IMG/VR virus record: IMGVR_UViG_3300028841_000327 | Direction: 5' to 3' (one strand) | Origin: a virus | DNA: 40,443 bases | Shown: positions 5,016-40,443 of the stretch, piece by piece | How the letters are laid out: each line of letters starts with the position of its first letter | Position numbering within the stretch: the first letter of the stretch is position 1 | Program-made: the position numbers and the translations under genes | Notes under the pieces: generated by a model | Databases searched by the model: none | Seen by the model: only the letters and a program-made list of their open reading frames with translations | Told to the model about the DNA's origin: nothing

Positions 5016-5672
5016 TCAACGTCGCAACGTGATGTCCTCGGCCGAGGCGGCCGATGTCCAACGGTGACCGCAGCTCGAGCAGGACAAGTGTAGGTGAGGG
5101 CGCTGGTTGTGCAGCAGCGCCGACACGACGTTCTGCTGCATCCAGCTCAAGGTCTCGAGCCACTCTTTGCTGGACATGTCACCGTCCGGTAGGATCCATG
5201 GGCGCGCCTTCGGGAACAGTTCGGCGCAGGCCTCGCGATGCTGGTCTGCTGTGCAGCAAGCTGTCCTGACGTCGCCGATGGTCGCGAGCTCAGGGGCCGC
5301 CACGTAGCTGCACACTGGGCATGTCCACTTCGCTCCACGGTACAACCGGCCCGTCACATCGGCGCCGACGATGTCGTGGTAGCCGCCGCGCGGCATGGAC
5401 ATCGCGTCGCGAGTCGCGTCCGCGCCATCGAGCGACCGCTCCTCCCAGTAGAGGGCCTTGGCGGGCGGCATCGCCGCCGCGTGCTCGATGGCCTGTGCAA
5501 CGACGACCCCGACCGCGGTGGGATCACGATACGGGTGACCGACAGCGAGTAGGGGGACACGCCGCCGCTTGAGGCGACGAAGCGTCCCGAGGATGCTGTC
5601 ATGGTAGACGACGCCGATGCAGAGGCCCACGACGGAGCCCGCACCAGCGACCAGCAGGAGCAGGGCGCTCAT
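5016..5672 (-). CDS. Membrane-anchored protein with Zn-ribbon motifs (218 aa)
   Basis: Hydrophobic N-terminus SALLLLVAGAGSVVGLCIGVVY; CPVC and CSSC pairs; ATGA coupling. Confidence 0.55.
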   Translation of the reverse strand: MSALLLLVAGAGSVVGLCIGVVYHDSILGTLRRLKRRRVPLLAVGHPYRDPTAVGVVVAQAIEHAAAMPPAKALYWEERSLDGADATRDAMSMPRGGYHDIVGADVTGRLYRGAKWTCPVCSYVAAPELATIGDVRTACCTADQHREACAELFPKARPWILPDGDMSSKEWLETLSWMQQNVVSALLHNQRPHLHLSCSSCGHRWTSAASAEDITLRR

Positions 5673-6547
5673 GATGTGGACCTCTCTATGGTCACACCAT
5701 CGAGCGCCCTCGCCGCCGCGTGCAGGGAATGGTCCCAAGTGTTGTAGGCGGCTCGGCGCGTCCTGTAGAGGTCGTTGGCCCAGTTGCCCGTGGGCACCGC
5801 GGTCACCGCCACCCAGCGGGTGAGGAGGCTACGGTCTCGAGGTCGGATCGAGATGCCTGGCATCACGACACCGCACCGCCTGTTGCCATGCTGGAAGATG
5901 GCGGCGAAGTAGACGGGCGAGTCCCCTTCGTCCACCGACGCCTCGATGCGCTCGACAGACAACTCCTCGACCGGTTGGCTGACGCCTCCGCGGATGACGA
6001 TGTCGTGCCTGAACCATTGCAAGAGCAGGCGCGCGGCAGCCGCAGCGGACGCCGAGTCCGTCACCTCGACCGACAGATCGTCGGCACGGGCACGTCGCGC
6101 CGTGCGCTTGCTGGCTGCCTTCTTGGTCGCCGCGCCCTTCTTGCCCTTCTTCTTGTCATCGGGGGGCGGCACGGGCTGCAGGGCCTGCTTCGGGAGAGTC
6201 CCCGGATCGACGACCGCCACGCCGCGGAGAACCGATGCGCGTACCGCCTGGGTCGACCAAGCGACGCTGCCGTGCTTCGTCGCCCGGCTTGGCTTGCTCG
6301 GGAGCACGATCATCCAGCCTGTGCCTCCCTGAACCTGCGCCCGAACCACCCATCCGGTGACCGGCTCCTTCGGGCTGAGGCGCAGAGGCACCGCAGCGAG
6401 CAGGTGCCCGCAGTAGTGGTGATACGGTGCGCAAACGCGACTCAGCCACGCCACGGGCTCGCCCGCGTCCAGCGCGGTGATGGTCATGTCACGAGCCACA
6501 GAGATGACGTCGGCGATGGTCGCGGTCGACATGGTCGCGGTCGACAT
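5669..6547 (-). CDS. Hypothetical protein (292 aa)
   Basis: Co-oriented ORF, Lys-rich central linker. Confidence 0.55.
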   Translation of the reverse strand: MSTATMSTATIADVISVARDMTITALDAGEPVAWLSRVCAPYHHYCGHLLAAVPLRLSPKEPVTGWVVRAQVQGGTGWMIVLPSKPSRATKHGSVAWSTQAVRASVLRGVAVVDPGTLPKQALQPVPPPDDKKKGKKGAATKKAASKRTARRARADDLSVEVTDSASAAAAARLLLQWFRHDIVIRGGVSQPVEELSVERIEASVDEGDSPVYFAAIFQHGNRRCGVVMPGISIRPRDRSLLTRWVAVTAVPTGNWANDLYRTRRAAYNTWDHSLHAAARALDGVTIERSTS

Positions 6548-10517: not shown

Positions 10518-13500
10518 TCAGCCCGTGAGCCTCACGCTCGAGTCCTTCGTCGCGCCGAGCCTTTTCGGACGCGAGGCGCCACCTTCGAGCGCCTCGTTGT
10601 CCGTGAGCATGGCGTAGAGCTGCTTGCCGATGGAGAGGCCGACGAGGTAGCTGTCCTCGGCGACCCCGGCGGCTTGGAGGGCGGACTCGGGGTCGAGGCC
10701 GTCCGTCGCGACCGAGACGGCGACCTTCCGCATGAGGAGGTCGAGCGCCTGGGTCTGGATGGTGTTCGCGTACTTGGGGACGTAGATGGACGTCGGCTTG
10801 GTCTGCCCGATGCGGTCGACCCGGCCGATGGCCTGGCGGAACGTCAGCGGGTTGCACGCCGGGTTCTGCATCCACACCTCGGTCGAGAAGTGGACCAGGT
10901 TGTTGAGCCCCGTCTGCACCGTCACCGGGTTGGCCACGAGCACCCGCGACTTCTTGGCGATGACCTCCTTGTTGATCCAGTCCTGCCGCTTGGCGGTCGA
11001 GACCTTGTCGGCGTGGAGGATGGGGACCCGCTCGCCGATGCGTTCGGCGATGATCCGCGCGAGCCGGGGCATCAGCTTGGTGTGCCAGCCGAAGACCAGC
11101 ACGTTGCGCCCCGCCTCGAGCTCGGCCTCCACGAGGTCGAGCATCCACTGCTCCTTCGGCAGGATTGTGTTCGCGGGCAGCAGGGGCACCGAGGCCACGA
11201 TCCCACCGTCCTTCACGGTCGGCGGGTACTCGATGGCGAACTGGTCGCCGTGGTCGTTGCCGACGTCGATGGTCGCCCGATCGAGGTAGGAGGGCAGCTC
11301 GGCCAGCTGCCCCCACAGCTTGCCCGCCAAGTCCTTCTTGAAGCGGTCGGAGCGGATCTGGGCGAGCAGCTTGTTGCGCAGCGCCTGGTAGTGCTGGAAC
11401 AGTTCCCCCTCCGCCTTGAGGTCGACGTTGCGCTGCTCGCACTTGGGCAGCTCGATCGAGAGGTCGGACTTGTGGAGGGTGACCGACATGGGGAGCAGGT
11501 GGGTCATGAGGAAGAGCGGCAGCACCCCGGGGGCGTTGCCGAGGATCCGGTGGTTGCGCTCGACGCGGTCGGTCACGGAGCCGAAGGCGATGATCTCCCC
11601 GTCCTGCTTCTCCTCGACGAGGCGCTTGCGGAAGCCGTAGCGCTCGACGAACAGCGACCGGTGCTCCCGGAGGAACTCCCCACGGAAGCGGCGGCTGATG
11701 GCCCAGAAGTTGGAGAACAAGCTCTCGGCGTAGCCGTTCATGATGGTGCCGGTCATCAGGATGGTCGGCAGCCCCATGTTGGTCAGGCGGTGGGCCGAGC
11801 GCTCTTGGGCGCTCCCGTCGGTCGCGTACTCGTGCCCCTCGTCGACGATGAGGAAGTCGAAGAGCTTGCGGTGACGGCGGGAGATGAGCCGGGCGAGCGG
11901 CAGGCGGACGGGGTCGGCGACGCCCTGGTAGAGCGGCTCGTCGCAGACCGGGGAGTGCTTGAAGCGCGCGAGGGTGCAGGCGGCACGGAACGCCCGGAGC
12001 GCCATGGCTGCGGTGCCGGGGGCGTCGTCCTCGATCTTGGTCACCCCGCCCCGGTGCGAGGGGCTGAGGGTGAACGACCAGTCGGGCAGCTTGTTGCCCT
12101 TGTCGACCTCGGCGAGGTGGTCGCGGAGCTTCGCGACGGGGTTGCCGTAGCTGTCGTACCAGCGGCCGGCCATCTGGACCCTCTTCTCGGCGACCAGCTT
12201 CTCGAAGACCACGAGCGCTTGGTCGCGCTCGGCCCCCGGGGGGAGCAGCAGCAGGCACTGGGCGGCGGGGCCCGTGTCCATGCCGTACTCCTTGAGCCCG
12301 AGGTGGTGGATGGTCTCGACGATCAGCCGAGGGTTGGCGAGCGCGAGGAGCGACAGGCAGAGGGCCCGCACCGCCTTCTTCGTCACCTCGGGGATCGTGG
12401 ACTCCACCTCGTTGCGCAGGAGCCGGGTGCACTCGAAGATGATGTGGTGGAAGGGGCTGGACCGGTCGGCGACGATCGGCAGGCCCGACCAGCCCGTGGG
12501 CACGGTCCAAGCGGGCTTGCGCTTCCGCTTCTCGTTGCGCATCAGGTAGGCGTCGCCCCGGGTCTGGGCCATGCGGCCGTCGAGCAGCGCCGCGACGTTG
12601 GGATCCGCCGGGTAGTGGGGCTGCAACCGGATCGCGAGCTCCACGACCGACTCGGCGAGCCGGTCCTTGGGGTGCCGCGTCTGCGCCTTGCAGCGGGCCC
12701 GCGTCTTGGCGAAGTCGCCCCCGTGGAGGGGAGCCCCGCACTTGGGGCACCCGCTGCCCTGGACACCCACGTAGGCGTGCCCGAGCTTGGCGGCCTCACG
12801 GGAGAGCAGGCCGACCACGGGGCGCTCCGGGGCGGCCTTGACGGCCTTGGCGAGGCGCTCGAGGTCGAGCACGTCTCGGAGGACGTGGACGTCGACATCG
12901 GGGGCGATGGCCTCGAACTGTTCCTGCCACGAGGCGAGGAGGTGCGGGGGGCAGAGGATGAGGAGCCGCTTGGCGCCGAGGCTCCGGGCGGCGACGACCG
13001 ACACGGTGCTCTTGCCCGATCCGATCTCGCCGAGCAGGATGGCGGCCCGGTCGGGCTGTGCGAGCAGGCGCACGAGGGCGCGGGCGGCGTGGGCCTGGGC
13101 GGCGAAGAGCTTGCGGGGGGAGGGGTGGAGGGTGACGGCGTTCGCGTGGTAGCGCGGGTCGTAGAGCACCGGGCACTGCTGCTCCATGACGCGCATCAGC
13201 GAGGTCGAGTAGTGGGACAGGAGGTCGGCCGCGGTCATCTCGCAGACGGCGACCTTGCCCGGGGTGATGTCGGTGCCGGCCTTGAGGGTGTGGTAGGCGT
13301 AGGTCGAGAGGTCGAGGACGGTGGTGACCATCTTCGGCTGCTGCACCTGCACCTCGCCGACGACCTCGCCGTCCCTGTTGACCTTCTCCTCGATGGTCCG
13401 GTATTCGCGGTCGAAGACACCCTTGACCAAGAGCGGGGGGAGGTGGGAGCCCGGGTTGGGCTCGACGCGCGCCCCGTTGAAGATCCCGGAGGCCATCCCG

Positions 13501-14396
13501 GCCGCGATGTGGGCGGGGCGGGGCGGCACGGCGACGGGATAGACCCGGCGCATGAGGTCGACGGGGGCGACGCTCGGGACGAAGGCCTCGAGATCCTGGG
13601 CGGCCCCGGCCTTGTTGGTGATCGACCAGGGGCGGAGCTTGGCGAGGAGCGCCTTGGTGTCGACGTGGTCGATCTCGAGGTCAGAACTCCTGCTGTAGAG
13701 CGAGGACGGGCTCAAGGCAGGGACCGCGGTGCGCGTGCGGCACGCATCGCCGAGGACGGGAAGGGAAGCGGGGTCCAACGCCCAGGTCCGCACGAGGAGG
13801 GCGACCGAGCTGTCGGGCGCGAGCGGCTCGTCGACGACGCGCTTGGCGACGAGGACGACCTGACGGTAGGCCTTGAAGTCGTCGTCCGGGAACCGAAAGC
13901 ACCGGAGGTCGGTGTAGCTGCGGGCGAGGGTCTCGGCCGAGGCGGCGAGCGCGTAGTGGGGGACGACGAAGACGAGGACGCCGCCGCTGGCGAGCGAGTC
14001 GGTGAAGCGGGCGAGGAACCGTTCCTCGAGCCGCTCGTGCTCCCGGTCGAGGTCGTAGGGCGGGTTCAGGTACAGGAGCGAGGCGAAGGGCTTGGTCCAG
14101 CGGGCGCGGAAGGCGTCGGCGTGGTGCGCGTTGCCCACGGTGCGCGTGAGTGCGGTGAAGCGCGACTCCTCCATCTCGATGGCGACCCACTTGGGGGCCT
14201 TGGCGCCGAGGCGCTTGGTGAGCTCGACGAGGGCGGCGCCGTCCCCGGCGCACGGGTCGAACGCCACGACGCGGGGGCGAGAGTAGTTCTCGGCCTCCCG
14301 TTCCTCGGGCGGCACGAGCAGCTGCGCGATGAGGGGGATCAGGTGCGGCGGCGTCGGGTAGTACCCGGCGACGGCGACGCTCTCGAGACGAGCCAT
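10518..14396 (-). CDS. Amino (N6A/N4C) DNA methyltransferase (DUF6094-like) fused to SF2 SNF2/DEAH-type helicase (1292 aa)
   Basis: MTase: AGYYPTP, FDPCAGDG, LYLNPPYD; helicase: GEIGSGKS, ILCPPHL, LIVDEGHE, MTGT, TGLNNL, QAIGRVDRIGQ; GAAAGG RBS. Confidence 0.85.
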   Translation of the reverse strand: MARLESVAVAGYYPTPPHLIPLIAQLLVPPEEREAENYSRPRVVAFDPCAGDGAALVELTKRLGAKAPKWVAIEMEESRFTALTRTVGNAHHADAFRARWTKPFASLLYLNPPYDLDREHERLEERFLARFTDSLASGGVLVFVVPHYALAASAETLARSYTDLRCFRFPDDDFKAYRQVVLVAKRVVDEPLAPDSSVALLVRTWALDPASLPVLGDACRTRTAVPALSPSSLYSRSSDLEIDHVDTKALLAKLRPWSITNKAGAAQDLEAFVPSVAPVDLMRRVYPVAVPPRPAHIAAGMASGIFNGARVEPNPGSHLPPLLVKGVFDREYRTIEEKVNRDGEVVGEVQVQQPKMVTTVLDLSTYAYHTLKAGTDITPGKVAVCEMTAADLLSHYSTSLMRVMEQQCPVLYDPRYHANAVTLHPSPRKLFAAQAHAARALVRLLAQPDRAAILLGEIGSGKSTVSVVAARSLGAKRLLILCPPHLLASWQEQFEAIAPDVDVHVLRDVLDLERLAKAVKAAPERPVVGLLSREAAKLGHAYVGVQGSGCPKCGAPLHGGDFAKTRARCKAQTRHPKDRLAESVVELAIRLQPHYPADPNVAALLDGRMAQTRGDAYLMRNEKRKRKPAWTVPTGWSGLPIVADRSSPFHHIIFECTRLLRNEVESTIPEVTKKAVRALCLSLLALANPRLIVETIHHLGLKEYGMDTGPAAQCLLLLPPGAERDQALVVFEKLVAEKRVQMAGRWYDSYGNPVAKLRDHLAEVDKGNKLPDWSFTLSPSHRGGVTKIEDDAPGTAAMALRAFRAACTLARFKHSPVCDEPLYQGVADPVRLPLARLISRRHRKLFDFLIVDEGHEYATDGSAQERSAHRLTNMGLPTILMTGTIMNGYAESLFSNFWAISRRFRGEFLREHRSLFVERYGFRKRLVEEKQDGEIIAFGSVTDRVERNHRILGNAPGVLPLFLMTHLLPMSVTLHKSDLSIELPKCEQRNVDLKAEGELFQHYQALRNKLLAQIRSDRFKKDLAGKLWGQLAELPSYLDRATIDVGNDHGDQFAIEYPPTVKDGGIVASVPLLPANTILPKEQWMLDLVEAELEAGRNVLVFGWHTKLMPRLARIIAERIGERVPILHADKVSTAKRQDWINKEVIAKKSRVLVANPVTVQTGLNNLVHFSTEVWMQNPACNPLTFRQAIGRVDRIGQTKPTSIYVPKYANTIQTQALDLLMRKVAVSVATDGLDPESALQAAGVAEDSYLVGLSIGKQLYAMLTDNEALEGGASRPKRLGATKDSSVRLTG

Positions 14397-22253: not shown

Positions 22254-22732
22254 GAGGCCTCCTGCGGTTGGGCCGTGGGGGTCGCCCCGGCGTCTGCCAT
22301 TCGCTTCCGAGCGCCCGCCATGAGCGCCTCGAACACTTCCGGCTCGAGCACCTCCTGCGCCTCCGTGATGAAGTGGTGGCGCAGGTCGGCGGCCGCCAGG
22401 TGACGCGGGTGGGTGCGTGTGGCCTGGATGGCCTGCGAGAACTCGCGTTCCATCGCGAGCTTGACGCCCGCGGTCCGCGACAGAGCGGTCCGGCAGTGCG
22501 TGAGCAGGTCGTTGGGCTGGCCGCCCTCGCCCGCCGCGAAGCGAGCTGATGCCTTGCTGACGAGCGCGGACAGCCGCTTGGTCGCCCCGGACAGACCTTG
22601 GATGTGCGCCTCGAACGCCAAGCGATCGTGGCTCGGCTGCGTGATCTGCATCCGGTGGAGCTCGTGGAGCGCGGACTCGAGCTGACGAGTCAGAAGCTCC
22701 GTGGGCGGCTCGACGACACGCAGGCGGCTCAT
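22235..22732 (-). CDS. Helical hypothetical protein (165 aa)
   Basis: ATGA coupling to methyltransferase stop. Confidence 0.55.
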   Translation of the reverse strand: MSRLRVVEPPTELLTRQLESALHELHRMQITQPSHDRLAFEAHIQGLSGATKRLSALVSKASARFAAGEGGQPNDLLTHCRTALSRTAGVKLAMEREFSQAIQATRTHPRHLAAADLRHHFITEAQEVLEPEVFEALMAGARKRMADAGATPTAQPQEASCPTSR

Positions 22733-24735
22733 TGCAGGGCGGCCTCCTCGGCCGCTGCCCCGGAGATGATCCACTCGGACTCGCGCTCCTCGTCCGCGGA
22801 GAGGAAGCGGGCCCAGCCAGGCGCGATGGCGTCGGGCGCGTCCACCCAGACGCCGGTGTCCCCGTTGAGGCTCCACGCGCCCGTGGCACCTCCCACGAGG
22901 GTGACCAGCATCCGCGTGGCGATGGCCTTGGCGGTGGGGGGCGGCACGGCGTTGCCGATGCGTTCCCGCCACGCCGAGGACGACTTGCCGTGGAAGCACA
23001 GCGGCTTGCCGTCGACGTGCGAGGGCATGCCTTGCAGCATGGCCAGCTCGTAGGTGGTGAGCGGGCGGTGCCAGCACCCGTCCTCGGCGAGGATGATGGG
23101 CACGACCTCGGGGGCGTCCTTCGGGTTCGCCGGAGGAACGAACACCTGATGGTCGGGGACCCGGGGGTCGGCCACGGAGTAGGCGCCCTGGCCGGGGTGG
23201 GAGCCCGCGGCGACGGTGGGGCTGGGCTCGCGCCAGTGCAGGACCCCGTAGCCGTGGTCGTAGGCCTTGGAGACGCACAGGATGGGACGCCCTTCCTCGA
23301 TCCGAGGGTCGGCGACCGCCGCGGTGGCGTTGTCGATCTTCATGTGGCCGGTGATCGTGCGCGCGGCCTCGCGCCACCCGAGGAGCCCGTAGGCCCCCGC
23401 GCGCGGCTCGCACCCGAGGCGCACGTCGGCGACCGCGAACCGGCCGGTGCTGATGCCCGCCCCGCCGGTGACGGTGGCCGAAGGCTCGTCCCACCCGTTG
23501 ACGCCGTAGACGCCATGGAAGGCAGCGTCCACGCGCACGTCGGCGACCGCGAACCGTCCGGTGCTGATGTTCGCCCGACCGGTGACGGTGTCCGAGGGCT
23601 CGTCCCACCCGTTGACGCCGTACACGCCGTTGAAGGCGCCATCGAGCGTGAGGCGGGGGTCGGCGACGCTGACGGCTCCGCTGCTCGGAGCAGGGGAGGA
23701 CGTGACCGTGGGGGCAGCCTGGTCCCACCCGGTGACCCGGTCGACGTTGCCGAAGGCGTTGTCCTTCCCGCCGACCAAGAGGTCCCTGCTCGCGCCATCG
23801 AACTCGAGCCGCGGGTCGGCGATGTTGTTGACCGCGTTCGAGCCGGAGCCCGCGATGGTGGCGGCGGGCTCGTTCCAGCTCTCGATGCGGTGTCGACGGT
23901 GAAGCGTTCGGCGCGCCTGACCTTCGGCGAGGACGCCCGGGATGTCGCGCCAATCGCCCCCGGCGGGGATGAGCGCGAGGCGCACCCAGTTCAGCCAGGA
24001 GATGGTGGGCAGCCGGTGCATCGGCCCCCCTGCGGCGTCCTCGGGCATCGGCAGCTCGCGGAGCACGGCGCCGCACGGACGGACCTTGAGCTTGGGGGGC
24101 TCGTACAGGAGCGCGGGGGCACGCTTCGGGAGGCGAGCGACGAGCAGGTAGCGCTGGCGGTGCTGGGCCAGAGCCCCGATCTCCCCGCAGTCGTGGAACC
24201 CGTCGCTGAACACGTAGCCCTTGGCGCGCAGGACGGAGCGCAGCTCGCGCACCATGTCCGCGGCGCGCTTGCGCAGGCGGGGGACGTTCTCGAGCAGGAT
24301 GAGGGCGGGCCCTTCCGACCAGGCCTCGAACATGAGCTTGGTCCAGACGACCGCAAGGCGGTTCATGTCCTTGTACTTCTTCGTCTTGGCCTTCTCGGCC
24401 GAGAGGAGCCCCGACGCGCCCTTGCAGGGCGGGCTCATGAACACGACGTCGGGGGCCTTGTCCCCGGCGAACGCGCGGAGCATCTTGGCGGTGAGCTTGG
24501 GCACCTTGCGGCGGACCCAGTGCGGGGGCGGGGCGTCGCCGACGTAGGCGTTCAGCGCCGGGCTCTTGGTGAGGTACTCGAAGTCGTGGCACCCCGCGGT
24601 GTCACCATCGATGCCACCCACAGAGCGGAAGCTCGCGGTGACCCCGCAGACGGTCACCTGGGCGTTGAGGAAGCCGAGCGCCCCGGCGCCGAGACCGCAG
24701 AAAGGGAACAGCGCCGTGAAAACATGGTGGTTCAT
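22729..24735 (-). CDS. C5 DNA cytosine methyltransferase with repeat-expanded variable region (668 aa)
   Basis: Motifs I FCGLG, IV SPPCKG, VI LLENV, VIII QHRQR, IX RPLTTYELAMLQG, X RIGNAVPP; several ...W.EP..TV...VADPR repeats between VIII and IX. Confidence 0.9.
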   Translation of the reverse strand: MNHHVFTALFPFCGLGAGALGFLNAQVTVCGVTASFRSVGGIDGDTAGCHDFEYLTKSPALNAYVGDAPPPHWVRRKVPKLTAKMLRAFAGDKAPDVVFMSPPCKGASGLLSAEKAKTKKYKDMNRLAVVWTKLMFEAWSEGPALILLENVPRLRKRAADMVRELRSVLRAKGYVFSDGFHDCGEIGALAQHRQRYLLVARLPKRAPALLYEPPKLKVRPCGAVLRELPMPEDAAGGPMHRLPTISWLNWVRLALIPAGGDWRDIPGVLAEGQARRTLHRRHRIESWNEPAATIAGSGSNAVNNIADPRLEFDGASRDLLVGGKDNAFGNVDRVTGWDQAAPTVTSSPAPSSGAVSVADPRLTLDGAFNGVYGVNGWDEPSDTVTGRANISTGRFAVADVRVDAAFHGVYGVNGWDEPSATVTGGAGISTGRFAVADVRLGCEPRAGAYGLLGWREAARTITGHMKIDNATAAVADPRIEEGRPILCVSKAYDHGYGVLHWREPSPTVAAGSHPGQGAYSVADPRVPDHQVFVPPANPKDAPEVVPIILAEDGCWHRPLTTYELAMLQGMPSHVDGKPLCFHGKSSSAWRERIGNAVPPPTAKAIATRMLVTLVGGATGAWSLNGDTGVWVDAPDAIAPGWARFLSADEERESEWIISGAAAEEAALQ
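23421..23637. repeat. Near-identical 114-bp-period (38-codon) tandem duplication inside the C5 methyltransferase
   Basis: 23421-23523 vs 23535-23637, each encoding AFxGVYGVNGWDEPSxTVTGxAxISTGRFAVADV. Confidence 0.85.
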
Positions 24736-24822
24736 GGTGTCCTTGCAAGGGGCAGCGGCATGCCGCCCCGAGGTGGATGTTGAAGGGTGCAGCATGGCCG
24801 TGTTCGGACCATGCTGCAAGAG

Positions 24823-27477: not shown

Positions 27478-27644
27478 GCGGTCTCCTTCGTGGCGGCGCG
27501 CCGCCGATGGGTCTTGAGGGTGAGCGCCTCGGCGGCGTCCGCCTCGGCCTTGAGCGCCGCGAGCCACCGCGGGTCGTCGTACGCGATGGACTCGTCCTTG
27601 AGCAGGGCGTCGACCTCGAGCCTTGCCTTCTGGAGTGCGGTCAC
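27474..27644 (-). CDS. Hypothetical protein (56 aa)
   Basis: Coupled start/stop at both ends. Confidence 0.45.
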   Translation of the reverse strand: MTALQKARLEVDALLKDESIAYDDPRWLAALKAEADAAEALTLKTHRRRAATKETA

Positions 27645-29026
27645 GAGTCCCCCTTCGCCAGCGCCGCGGGGCGTTCGGCGAGGAGCGCTCGCGCCTCCTT
27701 CTCGGCGCCATCGCAAAGGCGCTGGTGCCCGAGGGCGGCCTTCGCGGGCGTGCTCTCGTCGAGCATGACGATCGCGTCGACGATCGCGAGGCCGTTCGGC
27801 TCTCCGCGGAGCGCGCGGCGGCGCCACACGTCGGCGACCCGTTCGCGAGCCAGCGCGACCTCGCCCGGGGTGCAGGCCCCCGGCACGGGGACGTGGAAGA
27901 TCGGGAAGTGGTGCTGGAGACGCTGGACCCGAACGACGGCCGAGGGCCGGTCGTGCTCGAACGTGGCCACGACGTTCGCCGGACTGGTCGGGAGCCGCGC
28001 CTCGGCGCGGTAGCTGGTCATCTCGCCCTGACGCAGCAGTTGAAACGCGCTGTCGAGCGCGGGGCGGCGGAACTCGTCGAGCTGGTCGAGGAGCAGAACC
28101 CCCCGGTGGGCCAAGGAGACCTCGCCGAGGCGCATCGCGCGCGTCGCGAGGTTCCCGATGAGGCCCTGGTCGCTGACGGTGTGGTGGGGCGCCCGGAAGG
28201 GCCTGGACGAGACCGCACCATTCTCGAGCCCCATCGCCGCCGAGTGCACGGAGGTGACCTCAGTCCTCTCCTGCACCGAGAGAGGGGGCAGGAGGTGGAT
28301 CAGGCGCCGCGCGCAGAAGACACTCATCCGTCCGCTGAGCAAGAGGCCTGCCCCGGAGGCGGCCGCGATCTCGAGCACCCGGAGGGTCCGCGGGCTGAGG
28401 TGGGCGTGACCGTCGAACGACGAGTCGTCGTCGGGCATCGTCAGGGGCGGGGGCGGCGGGAACATGAAGCCCTCGGGGATCCCCTCGTGACGGCGCAGCT
28501 CGGTCAGGAGGTCCTGCACCGAGGCGACGTCGAGGAACCGAGACCCCGTCGGCTCCGCAGACCAGGCCTCCGCGGCGTTTCCGCGGGGGATGATCCAGAG
28601 GGCCCGGACCGCCGACCCGAGGGGGATGTTGTGCATCCGGCAGTAGGCGCCGCGGACGGGCTGGATGGCCCCGCTGAGGCTGACCGATCCGAACGAAGCG
28701 ATCTTCTCGAGGGCCGGCCCGATGCTGGTGGTCGGGTTGGGGATCTTGCCGAGGTGGGCGAGTACGCCGATCAGGACCGGGAGGTCGAGGCCGTGTCCGC
28801 CGCCATCGGTGGAGAGCGTGGGGATGGAGATCCCGATGCGCTCCGGGTCGATCTCCAGGCAGTGGAGGACGGAGCGAATGCGGATGCGCAGCTCCCCGGC
28901 CGCGTTCTCCGAGAGGCCGGTGATCTGCATCGAGGGGCCGTTCTCGGGGGTGAAGATCAGGATGGGGACGAGCTTGGCCTGGATGCCAACGAGCTCGACG
29001 CCGTACACACGGGTGGTGGTGGTCAT
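27641..29026 (-). CDS. ComM/YifB (Mg-chelatase-related AAA+) homologue with degenerate ATPase motifs (461 aa)
   Basis: ITGL...ELRIRIRS...GLDLPVLIGVL...GSVSLSGAIQPVRG...IIPRGN; LEIAAASG, LPPLS, RPFRAPHHTVS, GEVSLAHRGVLLLD; P-loop replaced by SGRMSVF, Walker B DE to DQ. Confidence 0.8.
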   Translation of the reverse strand: MTTTTRVYGVELVGIQAKLVPILIFTPENGPSMQITGLSENAAGELRIRIRSVLHCLEIDPERIGISIPTLSTDGGGHGLDLPVLIGVLAHLGKIPNPTTSIGPALEKIASFGSVSLSGAIQPVRGAYCRMHNIPLGSAVRALWIIPRGNAAEAWSAEPTGSRFLDVASVQDLLTELRRHEGIPEGFMFPPPPPLTMPDDDSSFDGHAHLSPRTLRVLEIAAASGAGLLLSGRMSVFCARRLIHLLPPLSVQERTEVTSVHSAAMGLENGAVSSRPFRAPHHTVSDQGLIGNLATRAMRLGEVSLAHRGVLLLDQLDEFRRPALDSAFQLLRQGEMTSYRAEARLPTSPANVVATFEHDRPSAVVRVQRLQHHFPIFHVPVPGACTPGEVALARERVADVWRRRALRGEPNGLAIVDAIVMLDESTPAKAALGHQRLCDGAEKEARALLAERPAALAKGDS

Positions 29027-36638: not shown

Positions 36639-36737
36639 GGCTTCCTTTCAGCGAGCCGAATGCCCGCGCCTCGACCCCGGAACCGGATGGTGTCCAGGGT
36701 CGAGGTGCGAGGGCGAACCGTTGGCCACCGGTTCGCC
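36639..36737 (-). promoter_or_regulatory. Full A-B-C intergenic structural element
   Basis: A GGCGAACCG..CGGTTCGCC; B CTCGCACCTCGACCCTGGA..TCCGGGGTCGAGGCGCGGG; C GCGGGC-ATTCG-GCTCGC then TGAAAGG. Confidence 0.75.
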
Positions 36738-37877: not shown

Positions 37878-37978
37878 GGTTGCCTTTCAGCGTTGCCCAC
37901 AACGGGCCCCGCGCCACGACCCCGGAACCGACAGGCGGATCCAGGGTCGAGGTGCGAGGGGGAGCGCGAACGCTCCCC
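37878..37978 (-). promoter_or_regulatory. Full A-B-C intergenic structural element
   Basis: A with TTCG loop; B CTCGCACCTCGACCCTGGA..TCCGGGGTCGTGGCGCGGG; C GCCC..GGGC then TGAAAGG. Confidence 0.75.
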
Positions 37979-37982
37979 GCTC

Positions 37983-38324
37983 CTACGTGGACTGCTCGAT
38001 TTCCATCAGGAAGGGCAGTGCCCACCCCGGAGTCGATTGCGCGGTGTAGAACGCATCGGCCTCGACGCGCTTGCCCTCGCGGAGACACCCGGAGACTTCG
38101 TTCGGGGTGCTCTCGTCATACATGGCGACGTCGAGTTCCCCGTTCGACATGATCCGCACCGAGATACACCCCCGCATGTTGGGTCGGCCGATGACGGCCA
38201 GCGTGGTGCTCTCAGCGCGGAGACGCCACCCTCGCCCCATGGGGTCGGTTTCGCGCGTGTGCCCCCCGCCCCATGGGAACGTGCCTTCCCACGACTGCTT
38301 GGCGGAGATCGAAAACTCCATCAT
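37983..38324 (-). CDS. Hypothetical protein (113 aa)
   Basis: Bracketed exactly by two elements. Confidence 0.65.
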   Translation of the reverse strand: MMEFSISAKQSWEGTFPWGGGHTRETDPMGRGWRLRAESTTLAVIGRPNMRGCISVRIMSNGELDVAMYDESTPNEVSGCLREGKRVEADAFYTAQSTPGWALPFLMEIEQST

Positions 38325-38416
38325 GGCTGCCTTTCAGCGGGCCCACCACGGGCCCCGCGCCACGACCCAGGAACGGATCCAGGGTCGAGGTGCGAGGGGG
38401 AGCGCGAACGCTCCCC
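38325..38416 (-). promoter_or_regulatory. Full A-B-C intergenic structural element
   Basis: A with TTCG loop; B CTCGCACCTCGACCCTGGA-TCCGT-TCCTGGGTCGTGGCGCGGG; C GCGGGGCCC..GGGCCCGC then TGAAAGG. Confidence 0.75.
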
Positions 38417-38422
38417 ACCACA

Positions 38423-39265
38423 CTACTTGCGACGCAGCCAGCGCTGGCCCGCGCCGAACGAATCGTCGCGCGCCTTGCCTTCCAAGTTGGCAGGCCGGTT
38501 CGGGGCGAGAACCACCCCGCCGCGACGTTGCACCATGTCCGCACCCGGACGCAGCTTGCCGAACTGCTCGCCATGTTCGTTCGACCACGCGAGGTTCGCG
38601 GCATTCGAGTCCAGCGCCGCTTGCGCAACGTTGTGACGCACCGACTGATACATGATCTCGACATCGCGGAGCGATCCGCCCCGTTCCATCCGAAGCCGCG
38701 CCCGAAGCGCGGTGTCGGGGTCGTGTTCCGCCATGAATTTGAACATGGCGTCGAGACTCACCCCGACCGCTTCGCGCTCCGGCTTCGGCTCCTCGCCGAT
38801 CGGGAGCATGGTCGTGTGATAGACCGGCCGCGTGAGAACGCTTCCGACGGATGCACACGTCTGACCGACGAGAGCCCCGGGCCTGTAGGCCGACGCGCTA
38901 CCGCGCCGACAGACGCCCAGTTGCTGAACGGACACCGCGTAGGCGAGCCGTTCGAGCGGTGTCGCGCCGTGGCCGAGGAGACGGAGCCCGCAACGCGAGC
39001 CGCCCCGCCGACACCCGACGCGGACCGTGGTCCGCACGTAGACTTGCCGCATGACGCCGCCCGGTTTCACCTCGCGATCGGTCGCTTCCGCGACGACCGG
39101 GGTCACCGTGGCCACGACCGCGACCGGGACAGGCGGAGGTTTGACCTCGACCTTCGGCGCCTTGGGCGCCTTGCGCTTGACCGGTTCGACCGGTTCGGGA
39201 GCAGCCGCCACGAGGCTAGGCCTCAGAGCCGCGGACCCCTGCACAATCCTGCGCATTGCACGCAT
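38423..39265 (-). CDS. Hypothetical protein (280 aa), first gene of the minus-strand unit
   Basis: CCGCGAAAGGAAACC-ATG start at 39265; Pro/Val/Lys-rich N-terminus. Confidence 0.55.
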   Translation of the reverse strand: MRAMRRIVQGSAALRPSLVAAAPEPVEPVKRKAPKAPKVEVKPPPVPVAVVATVTPVVAEATDREVKPGGVMRQVYVRTTVRVGCRRGGSRCGLRLLGHGATPLERLAYAVSVQQLGVCRRGSASAYRPGALVGQTCASVGSVLTRPVYHTTMLPIGEEPKPEREAVGVSLDAMFKFMAEHDPDTALRARLRMERGGSLRDVEIMYQSVRHNVAQAALDSNAANLAWSNEHGEQFGKLRPGADMVQRRGGVVLAPNRPANLEGKARDDSFGAGQRWLRRK

Positions 39266-40085
39266 GGTTTCCTTTCGCGGGCCCACCTTGGGCCTCGCAC
39301 CAAAACCCCGGTACTGCGCTTGCAGTCCAGGGCTTTGGCACGAGGGCGAATCTTGCGACTCGCCCCCGCACCAATCGAGGCTCACAACCTCGACAGGCCG
39401 GGGCACGTTACCGTGCAGACATGGGCCTTTGCTTTCGCGTTACCGCCCCCGTAGGGTTCACATACCAGCGACCCGCGACGCTTGCGCATCTAGCAGGCTC
39501 GCCGCTGTGATTTTGCGGCACCCGGGGCTCACAACCCCTTTCCAATCGTCAGGGCACGTCACCGTGCAACATAGACGCTTTCGCGACCGCCTCTTACGAG
39601 CGATTGCCTTGCAGCAACCCTTTGCGGTACCCGGCCTGTTCGACCGTTCCCGGACTCCCGCTAGGCCAGCCGGGGCTCGCAACCCTGACTTCCTAGACGG
39701 ACCGTGCCTGTAGCGCGCCGACCTTTGGCGTTTCCATGCTGCTAACACAAGCGCTCGTTTCCGAGGGGCGCGGGTGAAGCATGGCCCGGAACGATTCCGG
39801 GTGAAGCGTTGCACACCATATGCAACCGGTCGACACGACGTGACGTATGTAGCCTGTACGTAGGCCAGTCGCTATCCGCGTTGTTCGCGTTGTGAGAGGC
39901 CGCGGGGTAATCCCGTGGCATCGCGCCGCTTGCTTCGCTTGCGCACCGTAGAACCGGGCCCCTGTCACGGGGGGCCGAGTCTTCTAGGATGGAACCAAAC
40001 CACCCTAGATGTGCCTGTATTGCCGCCGCATTACCCCTATGGCGGGGGGGAGACGCTTAGTCGGAAACCGACAGTCAACGTCTAC
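39266..40085 (-). ncRNA. Putative ~820-nt structured leader / large ncRNA ending in an A-B-C element
   Basis: Dense hairpins with GNRA (GCAA, GTAA, GTGA, GAAA) and UNCG (TACG) loops and G-U pairs on the minus strand; three repeated units; lower GC; six CTAG in 39490-40092, rare in coding DNA here. Confidence 0.6.
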
Positions 40086-40113
40086 CAACTAGCGTTCCAT
40101 CGGACCAAACCCT

Positions 40114-40208
40114 CAAAGCAGAGCTTCTAACTCTGCAATGCAAAGCCAAAGCAGAGCTTGACAAAGCTCTGCCATGACCAAAGCAGAGTTTCTTGCGAAA
40201 GCAGAGCT
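40114..40208. repeat. Array of (C)AAAGCAGAG boxes, operator- or iteron-like, in the divergent region
   Basis: Direct copies at 40114, 40147, 40179, 40198; inverted CTCTGC at 40131 and 40167; palindrome GCAGAGCTT-GACA-AAGCTCTGC (40151-40172). Confidence 0.75.
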
Positions 40209-40360
40209 ACTGGTCGGGCGGTTAGGTAGTATGCGCGTTCAGGCACACGCTAGCGGAACGCGAGGCGCGCGGCAAGTGTCGAATCGTTCGCGCTCGATCG
40301 TGCGAGTGTCGCGCGGCGCATCGCTCGCACGTGGCGCGCGTGGTCGGCTACCATGTTCGC

Positions 40361-40443
40361 ATGCGTACGTGGCAGAAAGTAGCAATCGGTCTCGGAACCC
40401 TCGCCATGATCGGCGTGGCCGTGACGTGGACGAGCGAGGCGCG
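40361..40443 (+). CDS. Start of a divergent gene with signal-peptide-like N-terminus (truncated by window edge)
   Basis: MRTWQKVAIGLGTLAMIGVAVTWTSEA..., open to window end. Confidence 0.45.
   Translation, partial: MRTWQKVAIGLGTLAMIGVAVTWTSEA

Follow-up and report, generated by a model that had tools for sequence, protein, structure and literature searches.

A large, conserved and strand-specific non-coding RNA structure ahead of the minus-strand gene run of an uncultured high-GC giant phage

Introduction

What is encoded in the gene-free block that precedes the minus-strand genes of the window, a 40,443-nucleotide (nt) stretch of viral DNA (IMG/VR record IMGVR_UViG_3300028841_000327)? An initial annotation, made from the sequence alone, read positions 39266-40085 on the minus strand as an ornate leader RNA of ~820 nt, either a new large non-coding RNA or an antitermination leader, at the head of a 39-kb single-strand gene run. 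Nearly all open reading frames (ORFs) with high GC at the third codon position (GC3) between 101 and 39265 are carried by the minus strand, and nothing shows that the run is one transcription unit. Here we report that the leader RNA is a large, conserved, strand-specific, non-coding structure that matches no catalogued family. A strand-specific bias toward GNRA loops, compensatory changes, the lack of a matching Rfam family and the non-coding status of the stretch bear out the proposal of a new large structured RNA or leader.

Relatives' contigs were found via clusters of the protein encoded by gene 1, the first gene after the leader, and via variants of the divergently encoded neighbour protein. 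The gene 1 protein formed only two clusters among 5.8 billion proteins. Leader sequences were obtained from L014 and, in other metagenomes, from L001, L002 and L013/L015, and two more, L003 and L004, were identical to the window. The relatives' contigs, up to 200 kb in length, place the window in an uncultured high-GC giant phage of wastewater-type samples.

Results

The leader is non-coding and folds on the minus strand

Codon-phase GC was flat from ~40260 to 39266 (~0.6-0.65, with the three phases equal), and strong periodicity was found from 39260 downwards. The GC content of 39266-40085 was 0.626 versus 0.686 in the rest of the window, in agreement with the initial impression that the composition is unlike that of coding DNA. 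Two ORFs overlap the stretch, one of 118 amino acids (aa; 39458-39814) and one of 91 aa (39693-39968). Both were broken by stops or a frameshift in L001/L002, and substitutions at the three codon positions numbered 14/8/12 and 10/8/3, with no third-position bias. No gene was called over these ORFs on the contig of any relative. Protein-level conservation of either ORF, which the initial annotation had named as evidence against an RNA, was thus not found, and the leader stretch does not code for protein.

All ten hairpins listed in the initial annotation were found in place on the minus strand. The minimum free energy (MFE) of 39266-40085 on this strand was -399.5 kcal/mol, compared with -354.7 ± 7.7 kcal/mol in dinucleotide shuffles (z -5.8), and the antisense strand gave a z of -4.5 and a fold ~40 kcal/mol weaker. 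For the whole leader, the sense and antisense MFEs were -406 and -360 kcal/mol in the window and -604 and -503 kcal/mol in the distantly related contig L010. The leader folds into about 30 mostly local helices, many with GNRA caps. The sense strand had 11 hairpins with a GNRA cap and a stem of at least 3 bp and the antisense strand 2 (13/kb, versus ~2/kb in the rest of the window), and with a stem of at least 4 bp the counts were 6 and 0 (mean of mononucleotide shuffles, 0.57), confirming the loop bias noticed at first. Because of the asymmetry in GNRA loops and in G-U pairs, the minus strand was taken as the RNA strand; the fold is specific to it.

Compensatory substitutions in close relatives support the fold

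Leader identity to L001 was at least that of the flanking coding DNA and reached 0.95 per 200 nt. The differences among close relatives were mostly compensatory, as in the changes from GGUGG/CCAUCC to GGCGG/CCGUCC, from CCCGG/CCGGG to CUCGG/CCGAG and from CUCG/CGAG to CCCC/GGGG, and GNRA loops were replaced by GNRA loops only (GCAA to GAGA, GUAA to GCAA and GCAA to GAAA). When the structure was taken from the window alone, two-sided changes still paired at 9:0 in L001 and 8:0 in L002, and one-sided changes left the pair intact at 10:7 on the sense strand, compared with 5:15 on the antisense strand. In a structure of 238 local pairs, derived from the same sequences, 98.9% of cells paired, and 11 pairs had changed on both sides versus 3.6 ± 1.5 in shuffles (0 of 500 reached 11) and 0-1 in slid controls. 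The covariation that the initial annotation had called for was thus detected. These results indicate, above the controls, that base pairs are kept by compensatory substitution, a conclusion that is well supported, not proven. One hairpin, CCCC...GGGG at 40047-40034, is missing from L001.

The leader matches no catalogued RNA family

Searches against Rfam 15 at gathering thresholds gave no match in the whole window; below threshold, the best scores were 17-20 bits against thresholds of 58-59, and at E<=1 no match was found in L005, L010, L016 and L017. The absence of intron, RNase P or tmRNA hallmarks, remarked on initially, is in keeping with this result. A weak c-di-GMP-I-GGC match was discarded, as its 17 bits fell short of the threshold of 59 and the other lineages did not show it. 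BLAST of the leader and of 19-24 kb of flanking DNA found no match in INPHARED phages and PLSDB plasmids, and pattern and protein-anchored scans of IMG/VR and scans of GTDB genomes found nothing similar; the lineage is absent from these collections. A literature search returned no description of such an RNA.

Anatomy of the leader

The features of the locus are collected in Table 1. The transcript probably starts near 40240 (40240-40238), upstream of the box array, as judged from the candidate promoter. The TAGCGT -10 hexamer of this promoter was invariant in seven aligned relatives, in which its flanks vary, and the conserved non-coding block extends to about 40275. A transcription start at 40085-40110, as initially expected, is probably wrong, the best promoter candidate being at 40275-40247 and position 40082 being a mosaic breakpoint. 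Compared with 40082-40300 of the window, the segment 1933-2440 (minus strand) of contig L016 has a nearly identical promoter and AGCTCTGCTTTG array and, at ~40082, a clean mosaic junction. Since L016 diverges at ~40082, the 5' boundary of the initially annotated interval is a mosaic junction and probably not a transcription start. The leader of L016 is rich in GNRA and UUCG loops and is followed by a different first gene of 224 aa.

Table 1. Features of the leader locus, in the order of minus-strand reading
Feature	Position	Strand	Description
Divergent neighbour gene	start ~40352	+	membrane-anchored protein, family P0003 in relatives
Gene-free block	between gene start ~40352 and ATG 39265	-	~1.1 kb
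Candidate promoter	40247-40275	-	-35 TTGCCG (40275-40270), N17, -10 TAGCGT (40252-40247)
Box array	40114-40211	-	four direct AGCTCTGCTTTG boxes (spacing 33, 32, 18) and two inverted half-sites
Palindrome or hairpin	40173-40150	-	inside the box array; second possible hairpin at 40136-40118
5' domain of core	39705-40086	-	~19 local helices
Compensated 5'-domain helices	40086-40048, 40009-39983, 39801-39785, 39784-39734	-	one pair in 40086-40048
Hairpin UCUAGGGUGG/CCAUCCUAGA	40009-39983	-	one of the ten initially listed
CUCACAAC	39889-39896	-	8-nt perfect complement of the G-UUGUGAG heptaloops
Unit 1	39547-39704	-	long hairpin with GGG-UUGCGAG-CCC cap (loop 39682-39676)
Unit 1, remainder		-	ACGGUCG hairpin; GCAA, GUAA and GAAA hairpins; internal-loop hairpin copy 1 (39577-39547)
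Unit 2	39396-39538	-	GGGG-UUGUGAG-CCCC (39538-39524), then 70-nt GCAA-capped hairpin (39523-39454)
Unit 2, remainder		-	CCC-UACG-GGG, then internal-loop hairpin copy 2 (39427-39396)
Unit 3 heptaloop hairpin	39374-39394	-	GUCGAGG-UUGUGAG-CCUCGAU
Gene-start element copy	39266-39368	-	last ~110 nt of the leader
Parts of the element			hairpin A 39368-39341; stem B 39339-39299, then UUUUGG; hairpin C 39298-39277; Shine-Dalgarno GAAAGGA 39276-39270
Hairpin GGGCGAGUC-GCAA-GAUUCGCCC	within 39368-39341	-	one of the ten initially listed
Gene 1	38423-39265	-	280 aa from ATG 39265, preceded by GAAAGGA

The Logan contig L004 (SRR10823764) ends at 40238, 9 nt past the candidate -10, and covers the leader, gene 1 and the gene after it. 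This end is a hint only, as it would mark the start only if the run is RNA. The first ~30-40 nt past the predicted start (40212-40240; ~2375-2410 in L017) are C-rich and G-poor, and CUGAACG...CCGCCCGACC in this segment is partly common to lineages. The segment could serve in Rho loading or factor binding.

The AGCTCTGCTTTG boxes occur in the window only in this array, which lies beyond the initially annotated interval (39266-40085), and they are invariant in close relatives, with variable spacers. With a start at ~40240, the boxes would be inside the transcript, or they may act as downstream operators. Inverted box copies could form hairpins on the RNA, one of them (40173-40150) terminator-like; two terminator-like sites in all were found on the two strands of 38900-40443, within what shuffles give (1.3 expected). 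Stem B of the gene-start element is followed by UUUU only, and no alternative pairing of the attenuator or riboswitch kind was backed by covariation.

Nothing elsewhere in the window corresponds to the 5' domain of the structured core. Within this domain, CUCACAAC, which is predicted to sit in a large hairpin loop, was invariant in the window, L001, L002, L013 and L015. Downstream of it, a 148-nt periodicity corresponds to two or three tandem units, each with an internal-loop hairpin and then a heptaloop hairpin. In Unit 1, two pairs of helix 21 and one pair of helix 24 have changed on both sides. The Unit 3 heptaloop hairpin is missing in L001/L002, which carry an unrelated insertion instead. 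The AUG in the internal-loop hairpins (39573-39550 and 39422-39408) opens mini-ORFs of 4-10 codons (MLHGDVP and MSAR, each followed by a stop), and the counterpart in L010 reads MLLREGLRP and a stop. Since AUGU is kept while the peptides vary, its conservation is at the RNA level.

The 3' end of the leader is a recurrent gene-start element

Repeat families D2 and D3 tie 39266-39368 to copies near 36693, 37895-37963 and 38341-38401, and the same Shine-Dalgarno motif was found before the starts at 38324, 37877, 37032, 36638, 35576, 35013, 33986, 33368 and 31128. We defined the element by hairpin A, the long stem B, hairpin C and (A/U)GAAAGG 4-9 nt upstream of the start codon. It recurs before about nine other small genes, with stretches of 40-48 bp identical between copies, and the copy ahead of gene 1 contains three compensatory pairs. 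Within the leader, only 39368-39266 has this architecture, which is lacking in Units 1 and 2. The 3' part that was initially counted as unique leader is therefore one copy of a recurrent element.

In being a repeated regulatory stem-loop module next to small early genes that could mediate shuffling, the gene-start element, and only this part of the leader, resembles the promoter-early stem-loop (PeSL) cassettes of T4-type phages, reportedly described in 2010 by Arbiol, Comeau and Krisch. It differs from them in sequence and architecture (three hairpins and a GAAAGG Shine-Dalgarno motif) and in having no evident promoter, and the comparison leaves the unique leader body of ~700 nt unexplained.

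Two hairpins are shared with distant lineages

Relatives of the neighbour protein at ~60% identity were found on contigs L005, L010, L012, L007 and L017-L020. These contigs have in common a divergent gene, a promoter-like TTGACA-N16/17-TANNNT, a box array and a GNRA-rich gene-free stretch. The -10 variants at the same relative place in L010/L012/L017/L007 are TATGCT, TATCCT, TAAGGT or TACGGT. The distant gene-free leaders measure 0.65-1.05 kb and lead into a gene-start element and then small genes, of which the first in L005 and in L010 shows no clear homology to gene 1 of the window. The leaders of L010 and L005 are unusually stable (z -4.6 and -4.4, respectively) and show the same sense/antisense asymmetry in GNRA loops. 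A consensus fold of L010/L012, fitted to that alignment, gave 12 double changes and no broken pairs, and single-sequence folds of L010 or L012 do contain broken pairs.

The box arrays occupy the same place with lineage-specific sequences in direct and inverted copies: AGCTCTGCTTTG in the window (40114-40211), ACGGCAGACTT in L010 (~5790-5870) and L017 (~2290-2370), and TGCGCAG in L005 (~5470-5640). Such lineage-specific boxes point to a co-evolving DNA-binding protein, for which they may be operators or iterons.

Comparison of the window with the leaders of L005 or L010 by BLAST (word size 7) and by shared 8-mers with collinear chains gave nothing above shuffles. A covariance model of the 136-nt 5' domain (R1) hit only palindromic hairpins on the wrong strand, with no significant match at the expected places. 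Homology across lineages is therefore claimed only for the internal-loop hairpin and the heptaloop hairpin.

The shared internal-loop hairpin is ~31 nt long and consists of a 4-bp outer stem, a YAUGU(C)Y/YCY loop, a 5-bp inner stem and a GNRA cap. A covariance model built from the two copies of the window and one copy of L001 (R2) matched the leader strand of L010 (E 1e-5), L012 (1e-4) and L017-L019 (5e-3). Five of the nine pairs covary, and the unpaired bases are kept across three lineages.

The UUGYGAG heptaloop hairpin, of which the window has three copies, L001/L002 two and L010/L012 one, was confined to the sense strand of leaders in ~115 kb of loci scanned. Its stems vary (GGGG/CCCC, CGG/CCG, GAGG/CCUC and CCCG/CGGG), and the heptaloop with its closing G is perfectly complementary to CUCACAAC at 39896-39889. 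In L010/L012, a CGCAAC or UGCAAC inside the shared motif CAACGCGA matches the UUGCGAG loop of these contigs. Their loop has C where that of the window has U, and the CAACGCGA site has G where the window has A; the L010 match taken alone is within chance. The change in both loop and target would fit a pairing between heptaloop and target.

Possible function in cis

The reading that we prefer, to which we give about an even chance, is that the stretch forms the body of an RNA of ~0.85-0.97 kb, the 5' leader of the long minus-strand gene run, which acts in cis while it is being made. The leader points the same way as the genes downstream, which follow it without a gap. Co-transcription with gene 1 is inferred, as no canonical terminator separates the two. 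Host RNA polymerase would start at ~40240 from TTGCCG-N17-TAGCGT, read the lineage-specific box array, which is probably the operator of a phage regulator, and then transcribe the structured core, the gene-start element copy and gene 1. Unless folding or some other protection shields it, an untranslated RNA of a kilobase is open to Rho and RNases. Dense folding would keep the long untranslated leader compact and leave little free RNA for either. In each of the two or three tandem modules, an internal-loop hairpin (YAUGUY/YCY) is joined by a UUGYGAG heptaloop hairpin. The modules may bind a factor or the polymerase, or may instead dock on the distal CUCACAAC, and in either case would set the extent of transcription or translation into gene 1 and beyond.

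One version of this cis reading, processive antitermination of the put or nut type, is unlikely. That the RNA represents a new class of self-docking phage RNA built of tandem two-hairpin modules, in which UUGYGAG heptaloops kiss the distal CUCACAAC loop within or between molecules, is a still more tentative proposal.

Several observations weigh against a leader acting in cis or against antitermination. L016 keeps the promoter and boxes to ~40082 and then has a different leader of ~330 nt, so no single fold is essential. The covariation over the full leader rests on three to four close relatives, from whose sequences the 238-pair structure was itself derived. The candidate promoter was missed by a strict sigma-70 scan and is weak by the Escherichia coli consensus. 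A boxA (GCUCUUUA-like, <=1 mismatch) was not found in seven leaders, where the host's own boxA may differ; a 2-nt insertion is needed to make the repeated AGCUCUGCUUUG boxes look like boxA, and the boxes of other lineages are wholly different. Rfam searches gave no put or nut family match, the presence of a put model in the library being uncertain. Clear terminators were not found downstream of the leader. A long-range closure in which RNAalifold pairs GGUUUCC (40068-40062) at the 5' end with GGAAACC at the ribosome site was rejected as no better than chance, 85 of 200 shuffles doing likewise. Finally, the size and ornateness of the RNA far exceed the needs of known cis antitermination or attenuation elements.

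Alternative explanations

The alternative that survives best, although doubtful, is a trans-acting large ornate RNA that is processed or terminated from the leader transcript, for example after the UUUU of stem B at ~39299, and serves as a scaffold, a decoy or an RNA-only assembly. The UUGYGAG loops and the single CUCACAAC would then make contacts between molecules, like the kissing-loop multimers of ROOL and GOLLD. A length of at least 700 nt, ~30 helices and 11 GNRA loops are more in keeping with tertiary packing than with a simple switch, several loop copies face one complementary target, and stem B, unlike that of the other gene-start elements, is followed by UUUUGG. On the other hand, no canonical terminator was found, the leader abuts the ribosome-binding site of gene 1, and similarity to the GOLLD, ROOL, raiA, OLE or HEARO models is lacking. 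A body that is replaceable, as in L016, with almost no sequence conservation across lineages, would also be unusual for an RNA machine.

It is decidedly unlikely that the leader is a by-product, made of inter-cistronic modules left over from lost gene cassettes and having only a generic role, for instance in keeping RNA stable, in processing it or in insulating translation. In favour of this, the leader closes with a true copy of the repeated gene-start element, and both Unit 1 and Unit 2 finish with GAAAG-N-AUG and a mini-ORF of 4-10 codons behind it. The number of units also varies, the third heptaloop being missing in L001/L002, as does the leader length (330-1050 nt), and the body is mosaic. 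Against this explanation, Units 1 and 2 differ from the gene-start architecture and nothing else in the window resembles the 5' domain (40086-39705), the leader equals coding DNA in its level of identity and shows compensatory changes, and the internal-loop hairpin is conserved in three lineages, including its unpaired bases.

A DNA-level element, such as an iteron-bearing replication origin, a site for packaging or partition, or an integron-attC-like recombination site with hairpins in single-stranded DNA, is very improbable. The adjoining direct-repeat boxes do look like iterons or operators, and the site is at the point of divergence of two gene blocks, with a mosaic breakpoint at ~40082. 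However, the GNRA bias is on the strand of the downstream genes, G-U is tolerated on that strand only, and RNA folding energy has a strand asymmetry of 46-100 kcal/mol; the repeat boxes lie outside 39266-40085, and no adjoining recombinase, Rep or terminase gene was found in the families searched. The weakest explanation, a genuine small gene in either overlapping ORF (118 or 91 aa), has virtually no chance, since both are open in the window but broken in L001/L002, lack GC3 periodicity and third-position bias and are uncalled in relatives, which refutes a protein-coding reading by the initial annotation's own standard.

Genes of the minus-strand run

Family searches with the gene 1 protein matched no known family. 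The first genes of the run, small and without assigned function, look like early genes. Several recognisable proteins are encoded farther along the minus-strand run (10518-14396, 22729-24819, 27641-29026, 1703-2164 and 101-1321), among them a 1292-aa DUF6094 methyltransferase fused to SNF2/helicase, a 696-aa C5 cytosine methylase, a ChlI/ComM-like ATPase, a DUF6884 protein and a RepC-like helix-turn-helix protein. Together these proteins bring to mind anti-restriction and early functions. Within the large methylase ORF, at 23419-23637, lies a tandem repeat of 114 bp (1.9 copies, 90% identical). The methylase-helicase, DUF6884 and RepC-like genes had prompted the idea of a plasmid leading region or a single-stranded DNA promoter, which was dropped because the relatives show a giant phage genome and the structure is RNA-like and strand-specific.

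Discussion

How does this leader relate to known RNAs? By kind it is nearest to GOLLD and ROOL and by position to antitermination leaders, and it is a member of neither group. GOLLD (RF01998) and ROOL (RF03087) are large ornate RNAs of phages, prophages and bacteria, and GOLLD has been reported near phage tRNA sets (PMC5737381; 10.1101/2024.12.08.627333). Like them, the leader RNA is several hundred nucleotides long, has many helices, is phage-borne and may make loop-mediated contacts. It departs from them in lying at the 5' end of an operon, directly next to a ribosome-binding site, and in having a modular body for which a close relative may carry another. It has come to light in only a handful of metagenomic contigs, and it matches neither model even at E<=10.

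In lying downstream of a promoter and ahead of the first gene in a long phage operon, it resembles HK022 putL/putR, lambda nut (boxA and boxB) and the rrn leader boxA/boxB/boxC. The two-hairpin modules of the leader (~56-70 nt, with conserved unpaired bases) are comparable in size to put. The leader as a whole differs from put, nut and rrn in being ten-fold larger, in having no boxA or family match and in repeating its modules two to three times in tandem.

The leader-derived immunity RNAs of phages P4 (CI RNA, in which seqB pairs with seqA and seqC) and P1/P7 (c4 RNA) offer a third comparison. As in these RNAs, a short hairpin sequence of the leader (UUGYGAG) has its complement elsewhere in the same leader (CUCACAAC). 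In reverse of P4, there is one target and up to three loop copies, and the pairing here is a prediction. Processing signals and tRNA-like mimicry, which would belong to such RNAs, were not found in the leader, and the phage looks like a large virulent-type genome rather than a satellite.

Natural RNAs of more than ~500 nt with conserved intricate folds are rare, and OLE, GOLLD, ROOL and raiA each raised questions about RNA function without protein. The present leader is known only from a few contigs of uncultured phages and has a narrow distribution, which is its weakness as a subject. It is well delimited at a defined regulatory position, with a promoter, operator-like boxes, the RNA and the first early gene in succession. 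It contains small sub-elements that can be mutated (the internal-loop hairpin, the heptaloop and the complementary site), and the natural variants of 330-1050 nt behind the same promoter provide a ready comparison for experiments. If the leader acts in trans, it would be a new ornate RNA. If the self-docking proposal is true, it would be a large RNA particle or a platform that rides on the polymerase, at the head of a long early run that a giant phage transcribes with the host polymerase. A role in the control of early transcription would, if true, show how a kilobase of untranslated RNA escapes termination and degradation in giant phages of high-GC hosts.

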